Shown here one piece after another: positions 924-9,717 of a stretch of DNA of 28,867 bases. The translations under genes were made by a program, and so were the position numbers. Below the pieces are notes generated by a model. The model did no database searches, was not told the DNA's origin, and saw nothing but the letters and a program-made list of their open reading frames with translations. The DNA comes from a virus (taxonomy: Duplodnaviria; Heunggongvirae; Uroviricota; Caudoviricetes): IMG/VR virus record IMGVR_UViG_2660238462_000003; one strand, written 5' to 3'. Positions within the stretch are counted from its first letter, which is position 1, and each line of letters opens with the position of its first letter.

Positions 924-1226
924 AGTGGGAACAAGGGAAAACAAAAGCATCACCAACAATGCCACATTTGCGGCTGGTGGGCAATGTGATCAGTCAGATT
1001 TGGTTCGTTCCAAGGTTTGCAACGAGAGCTTTTTCCTGTGCTCTTTAAGGAATTTCTCAAGAGCAAACGAACAAGGTGCGAATCTTTCTGATTCATGTTC
1101 ATGCGCTATATTTTTGCGTCGTCTCTTACGAGTTGGTGATGGTGTTTTGGTTGATTCTGTGTCGCTCATGGTGCTGTCCTGTAAAGCAATGCGCCTGCGT
1201 TCCTCAAACTATGGCGCTGATATTGG

Positions 1227-1532
1227 CTATTCATGCTCTTTGACCTTGCGTCGCTGGAGTTCTTCACGCGCGACGGTGACGAGTTGCCCGATCTCCTCGG
1301 CTGCTTTGATGCCGATTTGTTCGACCTTAGCCAGGGCATCCAGTGACGACACAAGGGGATTTTCTCCGCTGCCTTCTGCTTGGCGGCGGGCTATTTCTCC
1401 GCGCATGGCGGTTACGATAAATCCGGCATTGCTTTCACCGTCCAGCTTAACGGATTCCATCCCTTGCATAACATCTAGTGGGACTCTGACAGTTGTCAGT
1501 TGTGATTTTGCGTTTTTGTTAGCCGTTGCCAT
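1227..1532 (-). CDS. Small ribbon-helix-helix-like / DUF3950-like putative regulator (candidate island repressor)
   Basis: 101 aa; strong SD (AGGAG) 8 nt upstream; N-terminal TTVRVPLDVMQGMESVK...GFIVTAMRGEI looks like beta-strand + helix RHH; divergent from the replication operon. Confidence 0.5.
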   Translation of the reverse strand: MATANKNAKSQLTTVRVPLDVMQGMESVKLDGESNAGFIVTAMRGEIARRQAEGSGENPLVSSLDALAKVEQIGIKAAEEIGQLVTVAREELQRRKVKEHE

Positions 1533-1593
1533 TTCTGAAACTCCTAATCATCGGTGTGTTTCAGTATACACAAAAAAAGAAATACAAAAAGCC

Positions 1594-1630
1594 TTGACGT
1601 GTGTTTCATGCGCTCATAACATGAAACACA
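1594..1630. promoter_or_regulatory. Promoter-like TTGACG with overlapping perfect 10-bp inverted repeat operator
   Basis: TTGACG at 1594-1599; gtgtttcatg (1601-1610) and catgaaacac (1620-1629) are exact reverse complements separated by 9 bp; sits in the divergent region between the 1227..1532(-) gene and the 1913(+) operon. Confidence 0.4.
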
Positions 1631-1912
1631 CCGAAAGGATTGTTGAAATACAAAGAGCAACGCCCCGCAGTGCTGGGAACACATACGGGGCGTCTAACCA
1701 ACAACGTAAACTAGGAGCCGTTATGGTTGCTGTAAATCATATACCACACCTTGTACACACACAAACGGCCTTTGTGTGGCGTTTTCTGGCACTGAGTGCC
1801 GGAGAATCTCAAATCATCCACGTAACCGCCTGGACGGAACGCGAAGCGCGTAGCCGTTGCCCGTCCGGTTGTGTTGCTGTATTCGCTGCAAAAATCCGCC
1901 AGGGAGTGAGTC

Positions 1913-2098
1913 ATGCTTAAAACCTTCCGTGTATTTGCCCGAGCTGTTAACCCAATAGGCCACACAATTGGTATCGCTCAGAATGTGAAGGCTGTTAATG
2001 TTCAGACGGCTATTGCTGCGGTGAGAAGCGAATCATCAGAATATGGCTTATCACAAGTCATTATTTCAGCAGTGTATGAATTAAAAGAGGTGCATTAA
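1913..2098 (+). CDS. Hypothetical small protein (61 aa), first gene of replication operon
   Basis: SD GGGAG upstream; stop overlaps next start (TAATG). Confidence 0.4.
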   Translation: MLKTFRVFARAVNPIGHTIGIAQNVKAVNVQTAIAAVRSESSEYGLSQVIISAVYELKEVH

Positions 2099-2289
2099 TG
2101 CAGGAAATTACATTACACGAAGCCGCTGAACGTGCGCACCAGACAGAAATTATTTGCCGCCTTCTTGAGGTATACCCGAACAAAATTACAGATGCTGATA
2201 TATCCGCACTGGCGAGCCTACTGGCGCGTCTTTCGGGAAGTGTCGCTAGTTTTTTGATTGAGGAAGAAAGTAAGCTGGTGGGGGATTAA
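2098..2289 (+). CDS. Hypothetical small protein (63 aa)
   Basis: Translationally coupled in operon; no recognisable motif. Confidence 0.4.
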   Translation: MQEITLHEAAERAHQTEIICRLLEVYPNKITDADISALASLLARLSGSVASFLIEEESKLVGD

Positions 2290-2511
2290 ATGAATACAGA
2301 ACGGGAAGTCTTTTTTAAATTGTTAGCATGTGCAGAAAGTTCATTAACTTTAAATAATTCAGCAAAAGCAATATTAAATATGTGGCTTGATTGCATAAAT
2401 GACAATGAAGATGCAAATATTGCTTATGGCCTGTTGTCACTTATTGATGAATCAGCAGAAAAACTCAATGACGCAATAAATAGTGCCCTGCTATCAAATA
2501 AGTCGAGTTAA
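2290..2511 (+). CDS. Hypothetical small protein (73 aa), AT-rich codon usage
   Basis: SD GGGGGA upstream; composition markedly more AT-rich than neighbours. Confidence 0.4.
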   Translation: MNTEREVFFKLLACAESSLTLNNSAKAILNMWLDCINDNEDANIAYGLLSLIDESAEKLNDAINSALLSNKSS

Positions 2512-2528
2512 GTCGAGGAATAAATAAT

Positions 2529-2828
2529 ATGGAAATGAAAAATTCTGGCTTTATTGCCAGCGGCCCCGCTCGACCTGAATTTATGAACGGCGATATTTAC
2601 CGCGATAAATACGGCGGCACGGTAACGATTAAAGGCGTGGCAGAACGGCGCATCACTTACCGCCGTGAGGGGTATAGCTATGACTGCGTGATGCCTGTTT
2701 ATCAGTTCCGGCGTGATTTTCCCCTGGTATATGCCGCACCCCGCAGTAAGCCCATCAGCAGGGAAAAAGCGTGGGGAAATATCCAGAAAATGAAAACCAT
2801 GATTAACGGATTCAGAGGTAAAAAATGA
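2529..2828 (+). CDS. Hypothetical protein (99 aa) translationally coupled to primase
   Basis: SD AGGAA upstream; stop overlaps primase start (ATGA). Confidence 0.45.
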   Translation: MEMKNSGFIASGPARPEFMNGDIYRDKYGGTVTIKGVAERRITYRREGYSYDCVMPVYQFRRDFPLVYAAPRSKPISREKAWGNIQKMKTMINGFRGKK

Positions 2829-4579
2829 AACTGGCACCGAACGTAAAACAGCAGTCACGCGGCATAAAACACAAAGGAACAGAAGTCATTATTTTTGCGG
2901 GTAGTGATGCCTGGGCACACGCGAAACAATGGCAGGAACATGATGCGCGTATGGCCGGAGATAATGAGCCTCCTGTGTGGCTTGGGGAGCAGCAGCTATC
3001 CGAACTGGATAATCTGCAAATTGTGCCGGAAGGCCGAAAATCAGCACGCATATACAGGGCCGGATATCTTGCGCCTGTAATGATAAAGGCGATTGGTCAG
3101 AAGCTGGCGGCAGCAGGCGTACAGGATGCAAATTTTTATCCTGAGGGTATGCACGGCCAGGAGGTGCAGAACTGGCGCGAATATCTGGCCCGTGAACGCC
3201 AGAATCTTTCTGATGGTCTGGTCATTGAGCTTCCGGTAAAGCAAAAGGCGCAACTTTCGCAGATGGCGGACAGTGAGCGCGCGCAGTTGCTTGCCGATCG
3301 CTTTGATGGCGTTTGCGTACATCCTGAAAGTGAAATCGTTCACGTATGGCGCGGCGGGGTATGGTGTCCGGTCAGCACAATGGAACTTAGCCGCGAAATG
3401 GTGGCGATCTATTCAGAGCACAGGGCCACTTTCAGCAAGCGCGTAATCAATAACGCCGTGGAAGCGTTAAAAGTTATTGCCGAACCAATGGGCGAGCCGT
3501 CTGGCGATTTGCTGCCGTTCGCCAATGGTGCGCTTGACCTGAAAACGGGGGAATTTTCCCCGCACACGCCGGAGAACTGGATCACCACGCACAACGGCAT
3601 TGAGTACACGCCACCAGCACCAGGGGAGAACATCCGCGATAACGCGCCAAACTTTCATAAATGGCTTGAGCACGCAGCCGGAAAAGACCCGCGCAAGATG
3701 ATGCGTATATGTGCCGCGCTGTACATGATTATGGCGAACCGGTACGACTGGCAGATGTTTATTGAGGCCACCGGAGACGGCGGGAGCGGTAAAAGTACAT
3801 TCACACACATAGCCAGCCTTCTGGCAGGGAAACAGAACACGGTAAGCGCTGAAATGACATCGCTTGATGATGCTGGTGGACGTGCGCAGGTTGTCGGGAG
3901 TCGTCTTATCGTCCTGGCTGACCAGCCGAAATATACAGGCGAAGGAACGGGCATCAAGAAAATCACAGGCGGCGACCCCGTGGAAATTAACCCGAAATAT
4001 GAAAAGCGTTTCACGGCGGTAATCAGGGCGGTGGTGCTGGCGACCAACAACAACCCGATGATATTCACCGAACGGGCCGGAGGTGTGGCACGTCGTCGCG
4101 TGATTTTCCGTTTCGACAATATCGTCAGTGAGGCCGAAAAAGACAGGGAGCTACCGGAAAAGATTGCGGCTGAAATCCCCGTTATTATCCGCCGATTGCT
4201 GGCGAACTTTACCGACCCTGAGAAGGCACGGGCTTTACTACTGGAACAGCGTGACGGTGATGAAGCACTGGCAATAAAGCAACAGACGGATCCGGTTATT
4301 GAGTTTTGCCAGTTCCTGAATTTTCTGGAGGAAGCGCGCGGCCTGATGATGGGTGGCGGTGGTGATTCAGTGAAGTACACGACCAGGAACAGCCTTTACC
4401 GCGTCTATCTGGCGTTTATGGCATACGCGGGCAGGAGCAAACCGCTAAACGTGGCTGAGTTCAGCAAGGCCATGAAGCCAGCGGCGAAAGTTTACGGGCA
4501 TGAATATATTACGCGAAAAGTTAAGGGAGTAACGCAGACCAACGCAATTACAACAGACGATTGCGACGCGTTTTTATAA
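2825..4579 (+). CDS. P4-family / D5-type primase-helicase (satellite replication protein)
   Basis: 584 aa; Walker A GDGGSGKST and surrounding D5_N/primase-C-like architecture; followed directly by iteron array. Confidence 0.85.
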   Translation: MKLAPNVKQQSRGIKHKGTEVIIFAGSDAWAHAKQWQEHDARMAGDNEPPVWLGEQQLSELDNLQIVPEGRKSARIYRAGYLAPVMIKAIGQKLAAAGVQDANFYPEGMHGQEVQNWREYLARERQNLSDGLVIELPVKQKAQLSQMADSERAQLLADRFDGVCVHPESEIVHVWRGGVWCPVSTMELSREMVAIYSEHRATFSKRVINNAVEALKVIAEPMGEPSGDLLPFANGALDLKTGEFSPHTPENWITTHNGIEYTPPAPGENIRDNAPNFHKWLEHAAGKDPRKMMRICAALYMIMANRYDWQMFIEATGDGGSGKSTFTHIASLLAGKQNTVSAEMTSLDDAGGRAQVVGSRLIVLADQPKYTGEGTGIKKITGGDPVEINPKYEKRFTAVIRAVVLATNNNPMIFTERAGGVARRRVIFRFDNIVSEAEKDRELPEKIAAEIPVIIRRLLANFTDPEKARALLLEQRDGDEALAIKQQTDPVIEFCQFLNFLEEARGLMMGGGGDSVKYTTRNSLYRVYLAFMAYAGRSKPLNVAEFSKAMKPAAKVYGHEYITRKVKGVTQTNAITTDDCDAFL

Positions 4580-4589
4580 TTTTTTGTAA

Positions 4590-4815
4590 AAGCCATCTAC
4601 CCCATCTACCTGAACAAAATAAACGCATATTATTCAACATGATAAGTGGGTATAGGGCTAGGTAGAAGGCTAATAAAAGCTCTCTACCTCTTCTACCTGA
4701 TTTTATCAGTTTCAGGTAGCAGGGTAGACGGCAGGTAGAGGAGTCAAAAAGCTATCTACCCGCTGAAAGCCGCGCCATTACTGACATGATGAGCATTCGG
4801 GTAGATGGGTAGAGG
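4590..4815. repeat. Iteron array, putative satellite replication origin
   Basis: At least 11 copies of (A/T)CTACC / GGTAG(A/T) core in both orientations (e.g. catctaccccatctacctga, ctctacctcttctacctga, tcaggtagcagggtagacggcaggtagagg, gggtagatgggtagagg); AT-rich flank; immediately 3' of primase. Confidence 0.6.
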
Positions 4816-4864
4816 GGGGGAGGCACAACTAAAAACTTTTTAAACGAGGGGGGGGTGAAAATAA

Positions 4865-5179
4865 ATGCGCATACATAAAAATCACTTAATAAACATGCCA
4901 GCCGAAAACATGAATCAGGGGCGACAAATGACCAAAATTCGCAGAGACAGAACACAGGCAAAATATAAAGCGTTAGACATGACAGAGCTTTCCTTAAAGG
5001 TGGCAATCAAAGCGATAGACCACCACACACGGGCAGGATACGCGAAGGAACATCCCGACCTGATAAGCGCATTCATGACCACAGCAGCGGCAAACTTTGC
5101 CACGCTGACAGAACGGGAGATTGCCGAAGCGGAACAGGTGACAACCATCAATGTTAAAACCGGAGAGCAGACAGCATGA
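4865..5179 (+). CDS. Hypothetical protein (104 aa; alternative start at 4919)
   Basis: ORF with stop overlapping SSB start; purine-rich SD-like sequence upstream of both candidate starts; G8 tract immediately upstream. Confidence 0.4.
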   Translation: MRIHKNHLINMPAENMNQGRQMTKIRRDRTQAKYKALDMTELSLKVAIKAIDHHTRAGYAKEHPDLISAFMTTAAANFATLTEREIAEAEQVTTINVKTGEQTA

Positions 5180-5625
5180 CAGCACAGATAGCGGCTTACG
5201 GGCGGCTGGTGGCTGACCCGCAGTTAAAGACCACCAGCAAAGGGACACAAATGGCGATGGCGAGTATGGCGGTTCCCCTGCCGTGCAGCCAGGCAGATGA
5301 CGGAACGGCGACGATGTGGTTATCCGTCCTGGCGTTTGGCAGACAGGCCGACGCACTGGCAAAACACCACAAAGGCGAACTGGTGAGCGTGGCGGGTAAC
5401 ATGCAGGTAAGCCAGTGGACAGGCCAGAACGGCGAAACGCGGCGGGGCTGGCAGGTTATCGCAGACAGCGTAATCAGTGCGCGAACGGCGCGACCGGGCG
5501 GCAAAAAAGGCCAACAGGGGCAGGCTACTGACGAACTGAACAGAGCAAAACAACAGGCAGATCAGCAAGGAAGCCAGCCACCAGTGGGAGATAATGAGCA
5601 ATGGGGAGATGATATCCCGTTTTAA
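5176..5625 (+). CDS. Single-stranded DNA-binding protein (SSB-like, divergent)
   Basis: 149 aa; OB-fold-like N-terminus alignable to E. coli SSB, Q/G-rich linker, C-terminal acidic tail ending DDIPF. Confidence 0.75.
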   Translation: MTAQIAAYGRLVADPQLKTTSKGTQMAMASMAVPLPCSQADDGTATMWLSVLAFGRQADALAKHHKGELVSVAGNMQVSQWTGQNGETRRGWQVIADSVISARTARPGGKKGQQGQATDELNRAKQQADQQGSQPPVGDNEQWGDDIPF

Positions 5626-5642
5626 ATATTGCCAATAAAAAA

Positions 5643-5667
5643 GGCCGGAAAAAATAAATTTTCCGGC
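5643..5667 (+). terminator. Stem-loop between ssb-like and capsid genes (possible attenuator)
   Basis: ggccggaaaa-aataaa-ttttccggc inverted repeat; no T-run. Confidence 0.3.
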
Positions 5668-5841
5668 ATGCTACATAAATCCCGACCAAAGGGAGTGAAG
5701 ATATTAACACTAATTGTCCGCACTGAAGTTGTCACCCCAAAACTTTATACAACATTGCACTCGGTTGCATGTGTTCGCATGACAAATATCGGTGGTAGCA
5801 TATATCCACAATTATTTTTAATGAATGCAAAGAGGATGCGT

Positions 5842-6882
5842 ATGGTTGATTTATATTCGCCTACTCAGCTTGTACAGGTGGTTAATGCTGTAGATGTACA
5901 AAAACAACTAAATGCGTTGTTTACCAGTTTGTTTTTTACTCGCTCGGTAATGTTTGAATCGCGCGATATTATTCTTGATACAATCGACGATCCAAATATC
6001 CCAATTGCAGCGTTTTGTTCTCCTATGGTGGGTAGTAAAGTTTCACGTGACGAAGGGTACGAATCAAAAACAATTCGTCCAGGCTATATGAAGCCGAAAA
6101 GCAGCATTGATCCAAATAAGTTAGCTGTGCGCCCTGCTGGTGTATCACCTGAGCAATACAATGCTTTTGGGGCACGTAATATTAAAGTTAAACAGGCGAT
6201 TGTAAATCAGGCTAAAGCTATTCGTGCACGTATTGAATGGCTTGCTGTTCAGGCAATCACAACGGGGAAAAATATCATTGAGGGCGATGGTATTGAACGT
6301 TATGAGCTGGACTGGAATATAAAACCACAAAATATCATCACTCAGTCTGGCGGTACTGAGTGGTCAGGTAAGGATAAAGAAACTTTTGATCCAAATGATG
6401 ATATTGAGAGCTACGCAGAATTTAGTGAGGGCGTCACTAATATCATCATTATGGGTGGTAATGTATGGAAGAAATACCGTTCATTCAGAGCGATAAAAGA
6501 GGCTTTGGATACCCGTCGTGGTTCTAATTCCGAACTGGAAACGGCCCTTAAAGACCTTGGTGATTCGGTGAGTTTTAAAGGGTATATGGGCGATGTTGCG
6601 ATTGTTGTTTACAGCGGGCGTTATACCGACGAGGACGGAACAGAAAAACATTTCCTTGATCCTGATTTGATGGTGCTTGGCAATACGGCTCTTCAGGGGA
6701 TTGTCGCCTATGGCGGTATTCAGGATCCGGAGCTAATCCGAATGGGGCTGACTAAAGCCGAACTTGCACCGAAAAACTATATTGTGCCTGGTGATCCGGC
6801 TATTGAATATGTGCAGACACATTCAGCACCACAGCCAATACCGGCCCGCATCAATCGTTTTGTTACCGTTCGCATTGGCTAA
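5842..6882 (+). CDS. Major capsid protein, lambda gpE family
   Basis: Shared blocks with lambda gpE as recalled: NITQSGGTEWS, DTRRGSNSELETA, GDVAIVVYSG, MVLGNT, PGY.KPK; start chosen at ATG 5842 (SD GAGG 6 nt upstream; ORF opens at 5629); about 347 aa vs 341 for gpE. Confidence 0.85.
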   Translation: MVDLYSPTQLVQVVNAVDVQKQLNALFTSLFFTRSVMFESRDIILDTIDDPNIPIAAFCSPMVGSKVSRDEGYESKTIRPGYMKPKSSIDPNKLAVRPAGVSPEQYNAFGARNIKVKQAIVNQAKAIRARIEWLAVQAITTGKNIIEGDGIERYELDWNIKPQNIITQSGGTEWSGKDKETFDPNDDIESYAEFSEGVTNIIIMGGNVWKKYRSFRAIKEALDTRRGSNSELETALKDLGDSVSFKGYMGDVAIVVYSGRYTDEDGTEKHFLDPDLMVLGNTALQGIVAYGGIQDPELIRMGLTKAELAPKNYIVPGDPAIEYVQTHSAPQPIPARINRFVTVRIG

Positions 6883-6891
6883 GGGGGAGCA

Positions 6892-7233
6892 ATGGCTACT
6901 CATTACACTGAACTCATGGCTGGCACTGAAGCACTGGTGACTACGCTGGGGATATTTTCAGCTAATAAAGGGGTAATTCCTGCATTTACGCCACTGATGC
7001 AGGAAGATGCAACAGGTGCACTGGTGGTATGGGATGGTTCGAGCGTAGGTAAAGCGGTTTATGTTTCCGCTGTACAAATCGACACAGCGAAAAAAACACA
7101 GGCACAGGTTTATAAGACAGGTGTTTTAAATGTTGATGCTCTGAACTGGCCTGAGTCTGTAAAAGAACTGTCGGCAAAGGTTGCCGCGTTTGTTGGCTCA
7201 GGTATTTCTGTTCAGCCGCTGGCTCGTGTGTAA
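6892..7233 (+). CDS. Head decoration protein, lambda gpD family
   Basis: 113 aa; PAFTPLMQEDATGALVVWDGSSVGKAV and WPE...AFVGSGISV align with lambda gpD; strong SD AAGGGGGAG. Confidence 0.7.
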   Translation: MATHYTELMAGTEALVTTLGIFSANKGVIPAFTPLMQEDATGALVVWDGSSVGKAVYVSAVQIDTAKKTQAQVYKTGVLNVDALNWPESVKELSAKVAAFVGSGISVQPLARV

Positions 7234-7244
7234 AGGGGGATACA

Positions 7245-7628
7245 ATGCAGAATCATTACAATGACCTTAAGCCAATTGCCGAAATGATGTATCCGGATCC
7301 AGCAGTAGAGGAATTAAAGGCTATTGCTGACAAAATGCGTTTAAGTGAACGCCTTGTTGATATGAATCAGGTGATGGAACTTACTACCCTTAGCCGTCGC
7401 ACATTGCTAAACCTTGAGGCTAGTGGAGAGTTCCCGGAGCGTGTGCAGGTTACGGAAGGGCGTAAGGCCTGGTATTTAAGTGAAGTGATCGACTGGATAA
7501 ACAATATTCCTCGATCTTCTGAATATTGCCGCGTACCTGTCCCAAAAAAGCCAGATGCGGCGCTATGCCTCAAGATTGAGCGTGTACGTCGCAATGCACG
7601 GGATGGTCGCTATAAGTTGATTGGTTGA
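7245..7628 (+). CDS. AlpA-like winged-HTH DNA-binding protein (second copy) immediately upstream of cos
   Basis: 127 aa; MNQVMELTTLSRRTLLNLEASGEFPERVQV...AWYLSEVIDWI matches AlpA/Xis-like HTH; strong SD AAGGGGGA. Confidence 0.6.
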   Translation: MQNHYNDLKPIAEMMYPDPAVEELKAIADKMRLSERLVDMNQVMELTTLSRRTLLNLEASGEFPERVQVTEGRKAWYLSEVIDWINNIPRSSEYCRVPVPKKPDAALCLKIERVRRNARDGRYKLIG

Positions 7629-7650
7629 TGAAATTAGGGCCCGTTCTGGC

Positions 7651-7830
7651 TGGCGGGTCCTTTCCGGCGATCCGGTAGGCTACGGGGCGGCGACCTCGCG
7701 GGTTTTCGCTATTTATGAGCCTTTTTCGGGTGCTGGTGGTGGTTTTGTTGTTCGCTCTATCTCTATGAATAAAAAGGAAAAGATAAAGCCAATACACCAA
7801 CCTGAAACATTACTTAAGTGGGGATATTGA
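7651..7830 (+). other. Lambda-type cos site (cosQ - cosN - cosB)
   Basis: 7685-7696 GGGCGGCGACCT equals the lambda cohesive end; following CGCGGGTTTTCGCTATTTATGA matches the lambda left end; preceding GGGTCCTTTCCGGCGATCCGGTAGGCTACG closely matches the lambda right end (cosQ); downstream cosB region diverges. Confidence 0.8.
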
Positions 7831-8300
7831 TGAAATCGCACCTGATGAACAAAAAAAACATGGCGCAAAGCTGCCGTGTAAGTGCGACAGCGTTCGACAA
7901 GTGGGGAGTGACTCCCGTTGAACGTAAAGGCCGCGAGGCGTTTTATGATGTTGCCAGCGTAATAGACAATCGGGTTAGCAATGCAATTAACCAGATTACA
8001 GACGACAAAGGCGAGATTGATGATGATGAACTCCTACGAGTCAGGATCAGATTGCTGACAGCACAGGCAGAGGCGCAGGAGCTTAAAAACGAGCGCGAAC
8101 GCGGCGACGTTATTGATACAGCGTTTTGTATATACGTGCTTTCAAAATTGGCGAGTCAGATTTCTTCAATCATGGACAGCCTGCCGCTTGCCATGACAAG
8201 GAAGTTTCCCGACATGAAGCCGTCTATGCTGGATGGACTGAAAAAGAAGTTATCAGAGCCTGTAACGCATGCGCAAAACTTGACGAAAACATACCGCTGA
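7830..8300 (+). CDS. Terminase small subunit, lambda Nu1 family (in-frame part; C-terminal domain continues in -1 frame to 8371)
   Basis: RLLTAQAEAQELKNERERGDVIDTAFCIYVLSKLASQISSIMDSLPLAMTRKFPDMK aligns with lambda Nu1; SD GGGGA 5 nt before ATG 7830; -1 frame 8246-8371 encodes EVIRACNACAKLDENIPLMLSDYLMETAG matching the Nu1 C-terminus. Confidence 0.8.
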   Translation: MKSHLMNKKNMAQSCRVSATAFDKWGVTPVERKGREAFYDVASVIDNRVSNAINQITDDKGEIDDDELLRVRIRLLTAQAEAQELKNERERGDVIDTAFCIYVLSKLASQISSIMDSLPLAMTRKFPDMKPSMLDGLKKKLSEPVTHAQNLTKTYR

Positions 8301-8382
8301 TGCTGTCCGATTATCTGATGGAAACTGCCGGAAACGTACCGGATAAGTTGCAGCCGAATAAAGATAAGTAACGTAGTACGCT

Positions 8383-8664
8383 ATGACTGAATCCGAAATA
8401 CTGCGATTAATCCGCCGTGCTTGTGGAATCAGCAAGCAGCATGACGAACAGGCCACGCAGCCGGACAGCGTGACCGCAGATAATTATGTGCGTGTAGTGG
8501 CTGAGGTGATGCGCCGTGACGGTATTGAGCTTAACGGCGTGGATATGCGCAACATACGAACAAGAGTCCTTGAGTTGCTGGCATATCGTCGCCGTTCTCA
8601 ACAACGGAGGGAGAGCGCGAAAAATACTTACCAGTGGAAGAAGCCGGAACGATTGCGGCGGTAA
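8383..8664 (+). CDS. Hypothetical basic protein (93 aa)
   Basis: ORF directly after terS; Arg-rich C-terminus; weak SD; no recognisable family. Confidence 0.35.
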   Translation: MTESEILRLIRRACGISKQHDEQATQPDSVTADNYVRVVAEVMRRDGIELNGVDMRNIRTRVLELLAYRRRSQQRRESAKNTYQWKKPERLRR

Positions 8665-8679
8665 CTTGCTGATATTCCC

Positions 8680-9060
8680 GATAACGCAAAATTGCGCTGG
8701 CTGACTTGTTGCATTGCAAAAAGTTAAGCAGGAAGGCACGGCCTGTAAGATGGGATGCAGTAAGTAGTTCAAGGCTACCTTGTGCTGGCACGCACAGTTA
8801 AGCCGTCGGTGCTGGATATCCCCCACTGGGGGAAAAGCTGGCTACATCCCTCACATCTGAGGACTGATAACGCGACATTGCGCTGGCTGGCAAAGTGCAA
8901 AATTGCACGATGGCCTAACCCATTGATTATTTCGAAAACCTGCAATGCAGGAAATCGGGGAAGTAAGCCTAAGCTATTGATTGTTTCGAAAACCCCCATT
9001 GGGGGATGTCGGGAAAGTAAGACTAACCCATTGATTCTTCCACAATCCTCAATTTGAGGA
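8680..9060. repeat. Non-coding region of short palindromes and degenerate direct repeats
   Basis: Direct repeat gataacgc(a/g)a(a/c)attgcgctggctg at 8680 and 8866; palindromes cgcaaaattgcg, ttgcattgcaa, cccccactggggg, gtgcaaaattgcac, cctgcaatgcagg, cccccattggggg, cctcaatttgagg; three roughly 55-bp units each starting (c/t)cattgatt(n)tt(t/c)c. Confidence 0.5.
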
Positions 9061-9479
9061 GGCCGGAACGTCTACATAGCTGCATCGCCGTAATGATGAT
9101 TCAGCCCACCAGCCAAATCAGCACAGCAACGACAGAATAGCCCGACACAGAAAAACCACGAATATGGGGTTTTTGTTATGACATGGTCATGATGACCACT
9201 CATACAAAACAGGTAAAGCCCACCAGCCTGATTAAAGGTTAACCGGAAAAAAGCCAGGTATCCAATCTCGATATGGGGATCCCTATATCGACATTAACGC
9301 CCACTAAAACTGTGCATATATGCATAGAAAAAGCATCCACCAGCTTTATGACGGATGCCGCTCATCTTATAAATAATCGTGTATTGCAGTGTGTATTGCG
9401 ACTCCTTTAAACGATAGGTCTGAGCATTCGTAATGTACTGTTTTTAAATTTTATTTTTTCCTGTCTTTTCATAAAGGCG

Positions 9480-9707
9480 ATGTATGCCGCCACCATTGAG
9501 AGTGAGCTGGATACGCAGTCAGCGATGGATTTTATTCTGGGCGCGAACAGTCAGGAGCAGCGGGAAAGGCTGACCGGCTGGATTGGTGAAATTGCCGCGT
9601 ATTACGCCGCAGCGCCGGTCCGGCTGGGAGGCGCAAAAGTACCGCACCTGATGCCGGGGGACTCACTGAACCTGCAGACGGCTCAGGACACGGATAACGG
9701 CTACTCC
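9480..9707 (+). CDS. Hypothetical protein, 3' end lost in scaffold gap
   Basis: ORF MYAATIESELDTQSAMDFILG... running into the N-run; unrecognised. Confidence 0.25.
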
Positions 9708-9717
9708 NNNNNNNNNN
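9708..9717. other. Assembly/scaffold gap (10 N)
   Basis: Run of 10 n characters. Confidence 0.95.

Follow-up and report, generated by a model that had tools for sequence, protein, structure and literature searches.

A candidate docking array of roi- and rha-type palindromes and integration host factor sites in the right arm of a helper-embedded Escherichia coli satellite

The late promoters of satellite P4 are activated by proteins of its helper P2, with Ogr sites and, at P_LL, Cox boxes. The Roi protein of phage HK022 reportedly binds a site in its own gene beside a site for integration host factor (IHF), and IHF is said to stabilise the binding. Papers that cite Clerget & Boccard (J Bacteriol 1996) refer to Roi as a DNA-binding protein connected with IHF-deficient hosts. 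For the satellites known as phage-inducible chromosomal islands (PICIs), Tommasini, Mageeney & Williams (2023; PMC10111431) described a helper-embedded configuration (HE-PICI) and a doubled attP arm motif, tgTGTATTGCantgTGTATTGCa, on both sides of the att centre. How Gram-negative PICIs perceive their helper was still under study according to the 2018 PICI paper, and literature searches covering the time since then found no identified inducer of these elements. Here we analyse positions 8665–9460 of the virus record IMGVR_UViG_2660238462_000003, whose full 28,867 nucleotides are referred to as the window. The stretch is the right non-coding arm of an HE-PICI satellite.

The arm can be divided into three zones. 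Zone 1 (8662–9075) is made of phased composite cassettes, in which an IHF consensus site lies about 10 bp from a short palindrome. The palindromes are those found inside the Rha-family regulator genes of helper phages, a few codons after the predicted recognition helix. On balance, and with modest confidence, we favour the view that zone 1 serves as a docking array, occupied by Roi/Rha proteins of the helper together with host IHF, rather than as coding DNA. This degree of confidence refers to the account of the whole right arm; the sequence identities, IHF consensus, covariation, modularity, Chi sites and att are observations, and from them we infer binding and its consequence. The type of island, the att motif, Chi and the reported HK022 Roi/IHF site were already known. 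Full-text literature searches and the PICI papers contained no description of a satellite array of roi- and rha-type operators with IHF sites, of the Chi cluster, or of general intragenic palindromes in Rha genes.

The three 54-bp units and phage roi genes

Palindromes with arms of at least 5 bp (or at least 6 bp) and a centre of at most 4 nt were counted and compared with 500 dinucleotide-preserving shuffles. The stretch 8665–9460 contains 19 with arms of at least 5 bp, against 4.47 ± 2.47 in the shuffles, only one of which has as many. Raising the minimum arm length to 6 bp leaves 10 against 1.15, a count reached by none of the 500. It is the palindrome-densest 796-nt stretch of the window (median 4), in agreement with the first-pass annotation, which had been made from the letters alone and called this DNA packed with palindromes. 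The excess is confined to 8665–9075 (14 against 2.2; none of 500 shuffles), and no significant excess is present in 9076–9460 (5 against 2.3). Three units of roughly 55 bp with different palindromes had also been described. These are three tandem units of exactly 54 nt, each with a perfect 13-nt palindrome (Table 1), the second and third being 80% and 61% identical to the first. The IHF consensus WATCAANNNNTTR has four exact matches in the 28.9-kb window, where 1.93 are expected, and three of the four lie in the units, on one strand and 54 bp apart.

In a sensitive BLAST search of phage genomes, unit 2 showed 90.6% identity over 53 nt to the roi (anti-repressor) genes of HK629, VT2-Sakai and many Stx phages, and unit 3 showed 96% over 50 nt to the phi330 counterpart. 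In both cases the matching strand is the one antisense to roi. Unit 1 agrees with a phage roi allele (L088) at 41 of 54 positions, and its palindrome stands at the equivalent place in HK022 roi, which is unannotated in the record and was located by tblastn. All three units correspond to the same roi codons, approximately 41–58. In all three alleles there is a single IHF consensus site (AATCAAT…TTA) at nucleotide 153 of roi, and about 10 bp from it lies the 13-bp palindrome, CTGCAATGCAG in HK022, CCACCATTGGGGG in HK629 (imperfect) and CCTCAATTTGAGG in phi330. The palindrome is found once in the complete genomes of HK022 and HK629, inside roi only. Roi consists of a Rha-like N-terminal domain (Pfam Phage_pRha, 26.9 bits, under the 29.9-bit cut-off) and a KilAC/ANT domain, and a sequence search of the PDB with Roi and Rha did not find a solved relative.

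The composite in the satellite is the same as that of HK022 roi in having a 13-bp palindrome some 10 bp away from the WATCAANNNNTTR site, with the HK022 palindrome in unit 1 and those of other alleles in units 2 and 3. Whereas the phage has one copy, within coding sequence, the satellite has three copies outside genes at a spacing of 54 bp, with three specificities and perfected symmetry, and it does not encode Roi.

Two scans of viral contigs yielded more than 40 distinct roi N-terminal sequences. In this set the 13-mer follows the codon pattern CCN-NNA-WTN-NNG-G, and the encoded residues vary by allele (PQIE, PALQ, PPMV, PPME and PPMA). Despite the changed residues the palindrome arms covary (TCA/TGA, TGC/GCA, CCC/GGG, TCC/GGA and GCC/GGC), and the palindrome is apparently under selection for symmetry rather than for coding. 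Each arm type is paired with one variant of the preceding helix (…RHDNVK-RT-IETL, -QS-IERL, -IS/VS-IERL, -RA- and -RS-), even in very divergent backgrounds. No recombinants between helix and palindrome occur among these alleles, though there are clear signs of recombination immediately downstream. Such a pattern would be expected if the proteins formed a family of dimeric DNA binders, each with its own matched operator.

Similar arrays are present at the att-proximal end of satellites beside dinD, phoQ and clpS and in 23 further satellite loci in viral contigs. The array-bearing satellites have different integrases and different neighbouring genes. They carry one to three roi-type units each, in shuffled class combinations, and the period is always 54 bp. 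Of 23 distinct satellite units, 21 have perfect palindrome arms. Variation is greatest in the right flank and also affects the spacer and the four free positions of the IHF site, whose core CTAA....TTGAT is conserved. Satellites always carry the HK629-type palindrome in its perfect form, CCCCCATTGGGGG (CCCCC), and the complete roi genes seen have the coding copy CCACCATTGGGGG (CCACC). A variant centre, CCTCAAATTGAGG, is shared by the satellite L090 and a phage allele (L065, L136). Some units run further into roi sequence (L110, L007), an indication of capture from phage genes. In the satellites, symmetry and phasing are evidently maintained without coding constraint. Neither the window nor any of 28 related satellite loci encodes a protein bearing the Roi/Rha helix motif, so the array would act in trans with the helper, and cognate proteins can come only from a phage. 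A scan for two IHF motifs 54 nt apart gave 77 matches, all in unrelated organisms and none in the Enterobacteriaceae representatives, and gives no view beyond E. coli. An apparent non-coding unit in L129 falls inside a 534-aa open reading frame (ORF) and was dropped.

The same comparison bears on the view that the arm is non-functional debris, in which fragments of Bro-network genes (roi, rha, kilA) were left by recombination with helpers and one of them was amplified by slippage and patched by gene conversion. Ragged unit ends, some of them extending into roi, would be expected of debris, as would the plain KilA-N fragment of about 55 nt in the same arm of L005, of which about 24 nt remains in the window. 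Chimeric Rha::KilA-N ORFs exist (L385, L395), and these gene families are called highly dynamic in satellites (PMC10111431). In debris, however, the palindromes should decay along with the flanks, whereas 21 of 23 are perfect, and one type has become more symmetrical than in the gene it came from. Nor does debris account for a 54-bp period that is exact in all lineages, for an IHF core that stays constant beside variable free positions, or for one short stretch of a 720-nt gene being present, side by side, in versions from three alleles. We regard debris as an unlikely account of the arm.

Rha-type cassettes and the antisense orientation

The left part of zone 1 contains cassettes of a second type (type II, the roi-type units being type I). 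BLAST of 8665–8915 against phage genomes gave nothing above chance, and the link of the type II palindromes to Rha came from reading the helper prophage alone. The helper prophage at the reference locus L001 encodes a Rha-family regulator (Pfam, 98.9 bits), and its gene holds GACGCAAAATTGCGTTGGCT in antisense. The match to this sequence is 20 of 20 in the related satellite L006 and 18 of 20 in the window. A search for relatives of the helper gene returned 80 loci, all at least 98% identical and hence uninformative on alleles.

The type II palindrome ACGCAA-AA-TTGCGY encodes R-N-F-A of a conserved Rha motif and is present in 191 Rha-family gene copies, including low-identity homologues. Where the residues flanking N-F change, they change jointly as reverse-complement codons, so that A-N-F-G is encoded by GCC AAT TTT GGC; the codon pairs are CGC…GCG (R/A), TGC…GCA (C/A) and GCC…GGC (A/G). 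The sequence GTGCAATTTTGCAC encodes x-C-N-F-A at the homologous position in three mutually divergent Pfam Phage_pRha proteins. As read from these genes, the pattern implies selection at the DNA level inside Rha-family coding sequence. The palindrome starts at nearly the same distance from the conserved helix in Roi and in Rha (+9 or +10 residues), and the insertion in Roi carries the IHF site.

A palindrome over the codons flanking the N-F motif is general in Rha-family genes, as at L229 (25358–25882), L337, L344, L354, L361, L427, L517, L528 and L560. A further long palindrome, AAACTACGAAA-T-TTTCGTAGTTT, is found in related satellites (L005 3424, L430 2591 and L110 4623). It could encode R-N-F-R and may represent another Rha-type operator class. 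The second 24-nt repeat and the GTGCAA-AA-TTGCAC palindrome, as a pair, precede the units in all related satellites.

All roi- and rha-type cassettes are antisense to the phage genes on the plus strand, which is the coding strand of every satellite gene, and the stretch from the last ORF to the array yielded no terminator. This orientation would suit an antisense RNA array, in which a plus-strand transcript of the late operon pairs with codons ~41–58 of roi mRNA, in three classes, and with about 20 nt of rha mRNA, and so silences helper genes. The homology to roi spans 45–50 nt with the spacer included. Three one-sided arm variants (8869–8888 in the window, L094 and L108) would give G-U pairs in a plus-strand transcript, but such a bias of three out of three has a chance probability of 0.125, and three informative variants are too few. 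The plus strand folds barely beyond shuffles (z = −1.99) and more weakly than the minus strand (z = −3.35), and a frame of promoter and terminator is lacking. The HK629-type copy departs from its target toward perfect symmetry (CCACC to CCCCC), and unit 1 differs from the alleles of its class at three free positions of the IHF site. Complementarity to rha amounts to just ~20 nt, most of it self-complementary, and the KilA-N-like piece of the arm is in sense orientation. At gathering score no Rfam family matches anywhere in the window, and relaxing the threshold to E of 10 or below for 8300–9700 brings up just two chance-level matches to unrelated families. We therefore think an antisense RNA array quite unlikely, and the structured non-coding RNA locus proposed in the first-pass annotation was not borne out.

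Two kinds of described RNA were rejected individually. The Rfam covariance models of the antisense immunity RNAs C4, P4 CI and isrK were unmatched. For a ToxI-like RNA of a type III toxin-antitoxin system, the tandem repeats should stand directly before an endoribonuclease toxin gene, but they are followed by no ORF and instead by Chi sites, att and a portal fragment.

Possible roles of the array

If zone 1 is a docking array, helper Roi/Rha dimers of several specificities would bind the palindromes together with IHF once a lambdoid helper expresses them. The 54-bp period is about five helical turns, so that IHF bends would be in phase and a bent nucleoprotein complex could form at the 3' end of the satellite late operon. 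In the embedded configuration, helper late transcription would pass through the array. AlpA of Pseudomonas is reported to be a processive antiterminator, and transcription of the late operon may be terminator-resistant. The array would couple the satellite to helper gene expression in trans, and its output might be that of a helper sensor, of a roadblock at the operon end, or of a sink that draws single-site autoregulators off the phage. Zone 2 (9106–9344) has three Chi sites in the same orientation, at which RecBCD that enters at the cos end (7685) and travels rightward would be attenuated, and zone 3 (9380–9486) holds the integrase arm sites and the att core.

The arrangement resembles that of P4 and P2, where the satellite likewise has several cis sites whose DNA-binding protein is encoded by the helper alone, and behaves according to helper expression. 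The P4 sites are at defined promoters and serve one helper family. Here, in contrast, no promoter is evident, an intragenic phage operator is copied, and specificity classes are stacked and exchanged. A docking array would be a concrete, testable cis element tying satellites to Roi/Rha and host IHF, and its variation could explain helper range. Independently of the array, the data suggest that Rha-family genes, very common and poorly understood in phages, generally hold their own palindromic site in the coding sequence.

A broader proposal is more doubtful, and we advance it only tentatively: the 54-bp cassettes of E. coli satellites may form an exchangeable set of operator mimics, each matched to one helper Roi/Rha class, with the corollary that Rha-family genes carry their own operator after the recognition helix. 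If so, a satellite that stacks and swaps cassettes could respond to the early proteins of many lambdoid helpers, by recognising them or by disarming them. The array would be a protein-level analogue of a spacer array, and protein and operator in the Rha family would co-evolve as the same nucleotides.

Several points weigh against a docking array. Binding is deduced from predicted Roi/Rha and IHF sites. There is no recognisable promoter beside the array, and it lies 400–800 bp from att, so that no output can be named. The association of helix and palindrome, which are about 15 codons apart, could partly reflect tight linkage. The composite of IHF site and palindrome is a candidate, though the natural one, for the site that Roi is said to bind. 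The helper prophage in the reference genome has a Rha gene and no roi-type gene, and the three roi-type units are without a cognate there. Lambda is not known to carry roi. It induces another E. coli PICI (2018 PICI paper), and Roi is therefore not a universal inducer. What looks like a plain KilA-N remnant lies nearby, and parts of the arm may thus be debris. Resemblance to the particular phage allele extends to the spacer that separates IHF site and palindrome, which fits recent capture or RNA pairing as well as it fits protein binding.

The array stands at the att-proximal end of the satellite, downstream of the genes for a Nu1-like small terminase subunit (TerS) and an AlpA-type regulator, and it could instead belong to the satellite's own machinery. 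The palindromes would then bind the two AlpA-type regulators, the upstream 93-aa protein or the integrase/excisionase and, with IHF, form an excision or packaging complex. IHF normally partners integrases and lambda terminase, and in every lineage the units come after type II palindromes and GTGCAAAATTGCAC. In lambda cosB, which has R sites for gpNu1 and the IHF site I1, IHF sites are likewise interleaved with small-protein sites in a cos-packaged element with a Nu1-like protein. In the window, however, the palindromes belong to roi and rha genes rather than being terminase sites, and the sole exact lambda cosN, GGGCGGCGACCT, is 1 kb upstream of the array, at 7685–7696 between the second AlpA-type gene and the Nu1-like gene. 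Protein-binding sites such as integrase and IHF arm sites had been suggested for the island end. Three perfect IHF consensus sites and an arm motif at 9380–9399 agree with this, but the IHF sites and palindromes lie 400–800 bp from the att core and are copies of roi/rha segments, not integrase arm sites; the published arm motif is elsewhere and precisely placed. The same cassettes are also found in satellites with other integrases and other neighbours, and sites for the satellite's own proteins would not need identity to allele-specific sites inside phage genes. This explanation is, in our estimate, very unlikely.

Least probable of all, and hardly to be expected, are patches for recombination, that is short homologies or hairpin targets for exchange between satellite and helper at roi/rha that feed gene capture: the units do follow individual phage alleles including the spacers, suggesting repeated exchange, chimeric genes have junctions near palindromes and three Chi sites adjoin the array, but a homology of fifty bp is short for exchange by RecA, the phage early-region DNA that exchange at roi should bring in is not seen beside the arrays, and the IHF sites, phasing and perfected symmetry stay unexplained. 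Sites for the satellite's own proteins and patches for recombination are possible, and both explain less than a docking array does.

Two further functions were ruled out for the arm. A cos site is excluded by the position of cosN upstream of the TerS gene, 1 kb away. An iteron/AT-rich replication origin is typical of E. coli PICIs (2018 PICI paper), and in the window iterons CTCTACC/ATCTACC and their inverse (AAAAGCYNTCTACC / GGTAGA) flank an AT-rich stretch at 4587–4816, downstream of the primase gene. The replication origin of the satellite is likely there, and not in the arm.

The right half of the arm and the surrounding satellite

The features of the arm are collected in Table 1.

Table 1. 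Positions of the features in and beside the right arm of the satellite
Feature	Position	Strand	Remarks
Type II cassette	8662–8702		Near-consensus IHF site TAACTTGCTGATA at 8662–8674 (minus strand TATCAGCAAGTTA, one mismatch to WATCAANNNNTTR)
Type II palindrome CGCAA-AA-TTGCG in AACGCAAAATTGCGCTGGCT	8683–8702		10 bp from the IHF site at 8662–8674
Optional segment between the 24-nt repeats	8704–8865		Lacking in relatives L006, L089 and L430
TTGCATTGCAA	8709–8719		In optional segment
TCCCCCACTGGGGGA	8819–8833		In optional segment; arms are those of the unit 2 palindrome; no IHF site
CCTCA-CATC-TGAGG	8849–8862		In optional segment; arms are those of the unit 3 palindrome
Second 24-nt repeat with degenerate palindrome CGCGA-CA-TTGCG	8869–8888 region		
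Palindrome GTGCAA-AA-TTGCAC	8895–8908		After the second 24-nt repeat
Type I unit 1	8913–8966	minus	IHF consensus AATCAATGGGTTA at 8916–8928; perfect 13-nt palindrome CCTGCAATGCAGG at 8939–8951; HK022 and 'PALQ' roi class
Type I unit 2	8967–9020	minus	IHF consensus AATCAATAGCTTA at 8970–8982; perfect 13-nt palindrome CCCCCATTGGGGG at 8993–9005; HK629 and VT2-Sakai roi class
Type I unit 3	9021–9074	minus	IHF consensus AATCAATGGGTTA at 9024–9036; perfect 13-nt palindrome CCTCAATTTGAGG at 9047–9059; phi330 roi class
Chi site 1 (GCTGGTGG)	9106–9113	minus	
Inverted repeat AAAAACCAC-GAATAT-GGGGTTTTT	9151–9174	plus	Sense match to an internal segment of phage KilA-N genes
Perfect palindrome TGGTCATGATGACCA (TGGTCAT-G-ATGACCA)	9184–9198		Kept in related satellites (TGGTCATAATGACCA in L008 and L430)
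Block nearly invariant in satellites with different integrases	9210–9262	minus	Includes Chi site 2 at 9220–9227
Inverted repeat AATCTCGATATGGGGA / TCCCTATATCGACATT	9264–9295		Conserved in relatives
Palindrome TGCATATATGCA	9313–9324		Kept in relatives, apparently of this satellite lineage only
Terminator-like hairpin, then T-run	9332–9359	minus	Overlaps Chi site 3 (9337–9344, minus)
Doubled integrase arm-type motif TGTATTGC-N4-TGTATTGC (TGTATTGCAGTGTGTATTGC)	9380–9399	plus	As published (PMC10111431)
att core AAGGCGATGTATG, i.e. AAGGCGAT-N-TATG (attR)	9474–9486		Portal frame resumes beyond, in frame

Some of the repeats reported earlier for the arm could be reassigned. The degenerate direct repeats of its right half, CCACCAGC(C) at 9106, 9220 and 9337, are the reverse complement of Chi, in one orientation and 114 and 117 bp apart. 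The direct repeat noted at 8680 and 8866 exists at these positions, with a length of 24 nt rather than 25 and 22 of 24 identical positions (8680–8703 and 8866–8889). The palindromes placed at 9185–9199 and 9313–9326 are likewise real, with limits of 9184–9198 and 9313–9324. No counterparts elsewhere were found for these two palindromes or for the inverted repeat at 9264–9295. The 186 bp from one 24-nt repeat to the next (8704–8889) is present in the window and in L005 and absent from L006 (compared at 3010–3045), L089 and L430, which is consistent with gain or loss of the segment by recombination between the repeats.

Chi is the RecBCD regulatory sequence of E. coli, and the arm holds three exact octamers of it in the same orientation. 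Here the sites form a cluster with a spacing of ~115 bp in a satellite arm. Ten Chi sites are present in the window, against 0.77 expected, and all of them lie within its satellite part (973–9344, ~9.4 kb; 2184–12880 in L001). None is found in the remaining 19 kb of the window or in ~14 kb of flanking lambda-like prophage in L001. RecBCD reads minus-strand Chi sites when it travels to the right, as it would after entry at the cos end at 7685. Of the 10 sites in the satellite as a whole, 7 are oriented for entry from one cos end or the other, a proportion that is not significant. One Chi site (7732–7739) is situated 36 bp past the end of cosN. The contrast of Chi-rich satellite and Chi-free prophage DNA would point to evasion of RecBCD by satellites without a Gam-type inhibitor.

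The match of 9151–9174 to a phage KilA-N gene (24 of 26 positions, E=1) is weak alone. A sense-orientation mid-gene KilA-N stretch of ~55 nt is present at L005 2935–2990, in the non-coding arm of the dinD-associated satellite, and aligns with hkbK of HK620 (L112 1195–1255). This longer copy strengthens the KilA-N assignment of 9151–9174, and the piece may be a gene remnant. In the ORFs of L385 and L395, both from viral contigs, a Rha N-terminus (…QRNFASAYYIDEQ) is joined directly to a KilA-N segment (TKEFLAELEKNHESVVF…), with recombination close to the internal inverted repeats of both families.

A promoter and terminator scan of the region gave results at chance level, the sole outstanding feature being the minus-strand hairpin at 9332–9359. 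This hairpin is conserved in L008 and could stop transcription entering the island from the right. The arm motif and the att core are ~90 bp apart, centre to centre, in only approximate agreement with the 81 ± 2 bp given in PMC10111431. A second copy of the arm motif is present to the right of attL in L001 (2114–2133).

The arm begins after the stop codon of the last plus-strand ORF at 8662–8664. No credible ORF is present in 8665–9460, where only chance ORFs of at most 91 aa cross, as the first reading of the sequence had also concluded. An ORF for a repeat peptide on the minus strand was rejected: the units are in frame (18 codons), but unit 3 opens with a stop, there is no start codon or ribosome-binding site, and the frame is unconserved in relatives.

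Loci in 21 complete E. coli genomes are 100% identical to window positions 8600–9520, and at least 80% of this stretch is present in 49. The annotation of one of the identical loci, L001, places an island of ~10.9 kb within a lambda-like prophage, where it interrupts the portal gene and runs in the direction of the late genes. The gene order of the island is integrase, AlpA-type regulator, Bro-N protein, Icd-like protein, primase, single-stranded DNA-binding protein (SSB), major capsid protein, decoration protein, second AlpA-type regulator, small terminase and 93-aa protein. The integrase gene lies just left of the window start and was read from L001. Pfam searches with the window's own ORFs back the assignments, and the order in the window (AlpA, Bro-N, D5-type primase, SSB, lambda E-type capsid, D-type decoration protein, AlpA and Nu1-like TerS) is the zone order of HE-PICIs. 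The portal gene is split into a 5' part left of the integrase (…IVKAIYV) and a 3' part from window position 9474 (…KAMYAATIESELD…), and the flanking genes are co-oriented. No tRNA or tmRNA was detected as an integration target. An island-chromosome junction had been considered for this stretch. A junction is indeed adjacent, with the att core just past the right end of the arm, but its target is the portal gene of a prophage, not the chromosome, and the DNA is island-specific rather than conserved chromosomal intergenic DNA of island-free strains.

With its split portal gene, arm motif and gene order, the island is a helper-embedded PICI satellite. It is like the HE-PICIs of PMC10111431 in its site among prophage late genes, its co-orientation, its doubled TGTATTGC arm motif and its four-zone gene order. 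That paper describes the att arm motif, whereas the array of IHF sites and palindromes and the Chi cluster are absent from its text. A search of the text found IHF mentioned once, where the arm motif is said to be unlike an IHF site, and Roi, Rha and palindromes unmentioned.

Beyond the arm, a run of 10 N at 9708–9717 marks a scaffold join that cuts the portal fragment. It is followed by the early and left part of a lambda-like prophage in reverse, with a P21-type holin, P, O, a CI-type repressor, a RecT-type recombinase, a lambda-type integrase and, after these, a ybhC-like pectinesterase. Window and genome are therefore not colinear. Near position 8245 the window has one base fewer than the near-identical L001, and the 180-aa small-terminase ORF (7829–8371 in the L001 frame) is split into ORFs 7818–8300 and 8126–8371. 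The missing base in the Nu1-like TerS gene is either a real frameshift or a sequencing error. The Nu1-like protein aligns with just the C-terminal half of the Pfam Nu1 model (positions 79–158 of 164), as expected of a homologue that redirects packaging.

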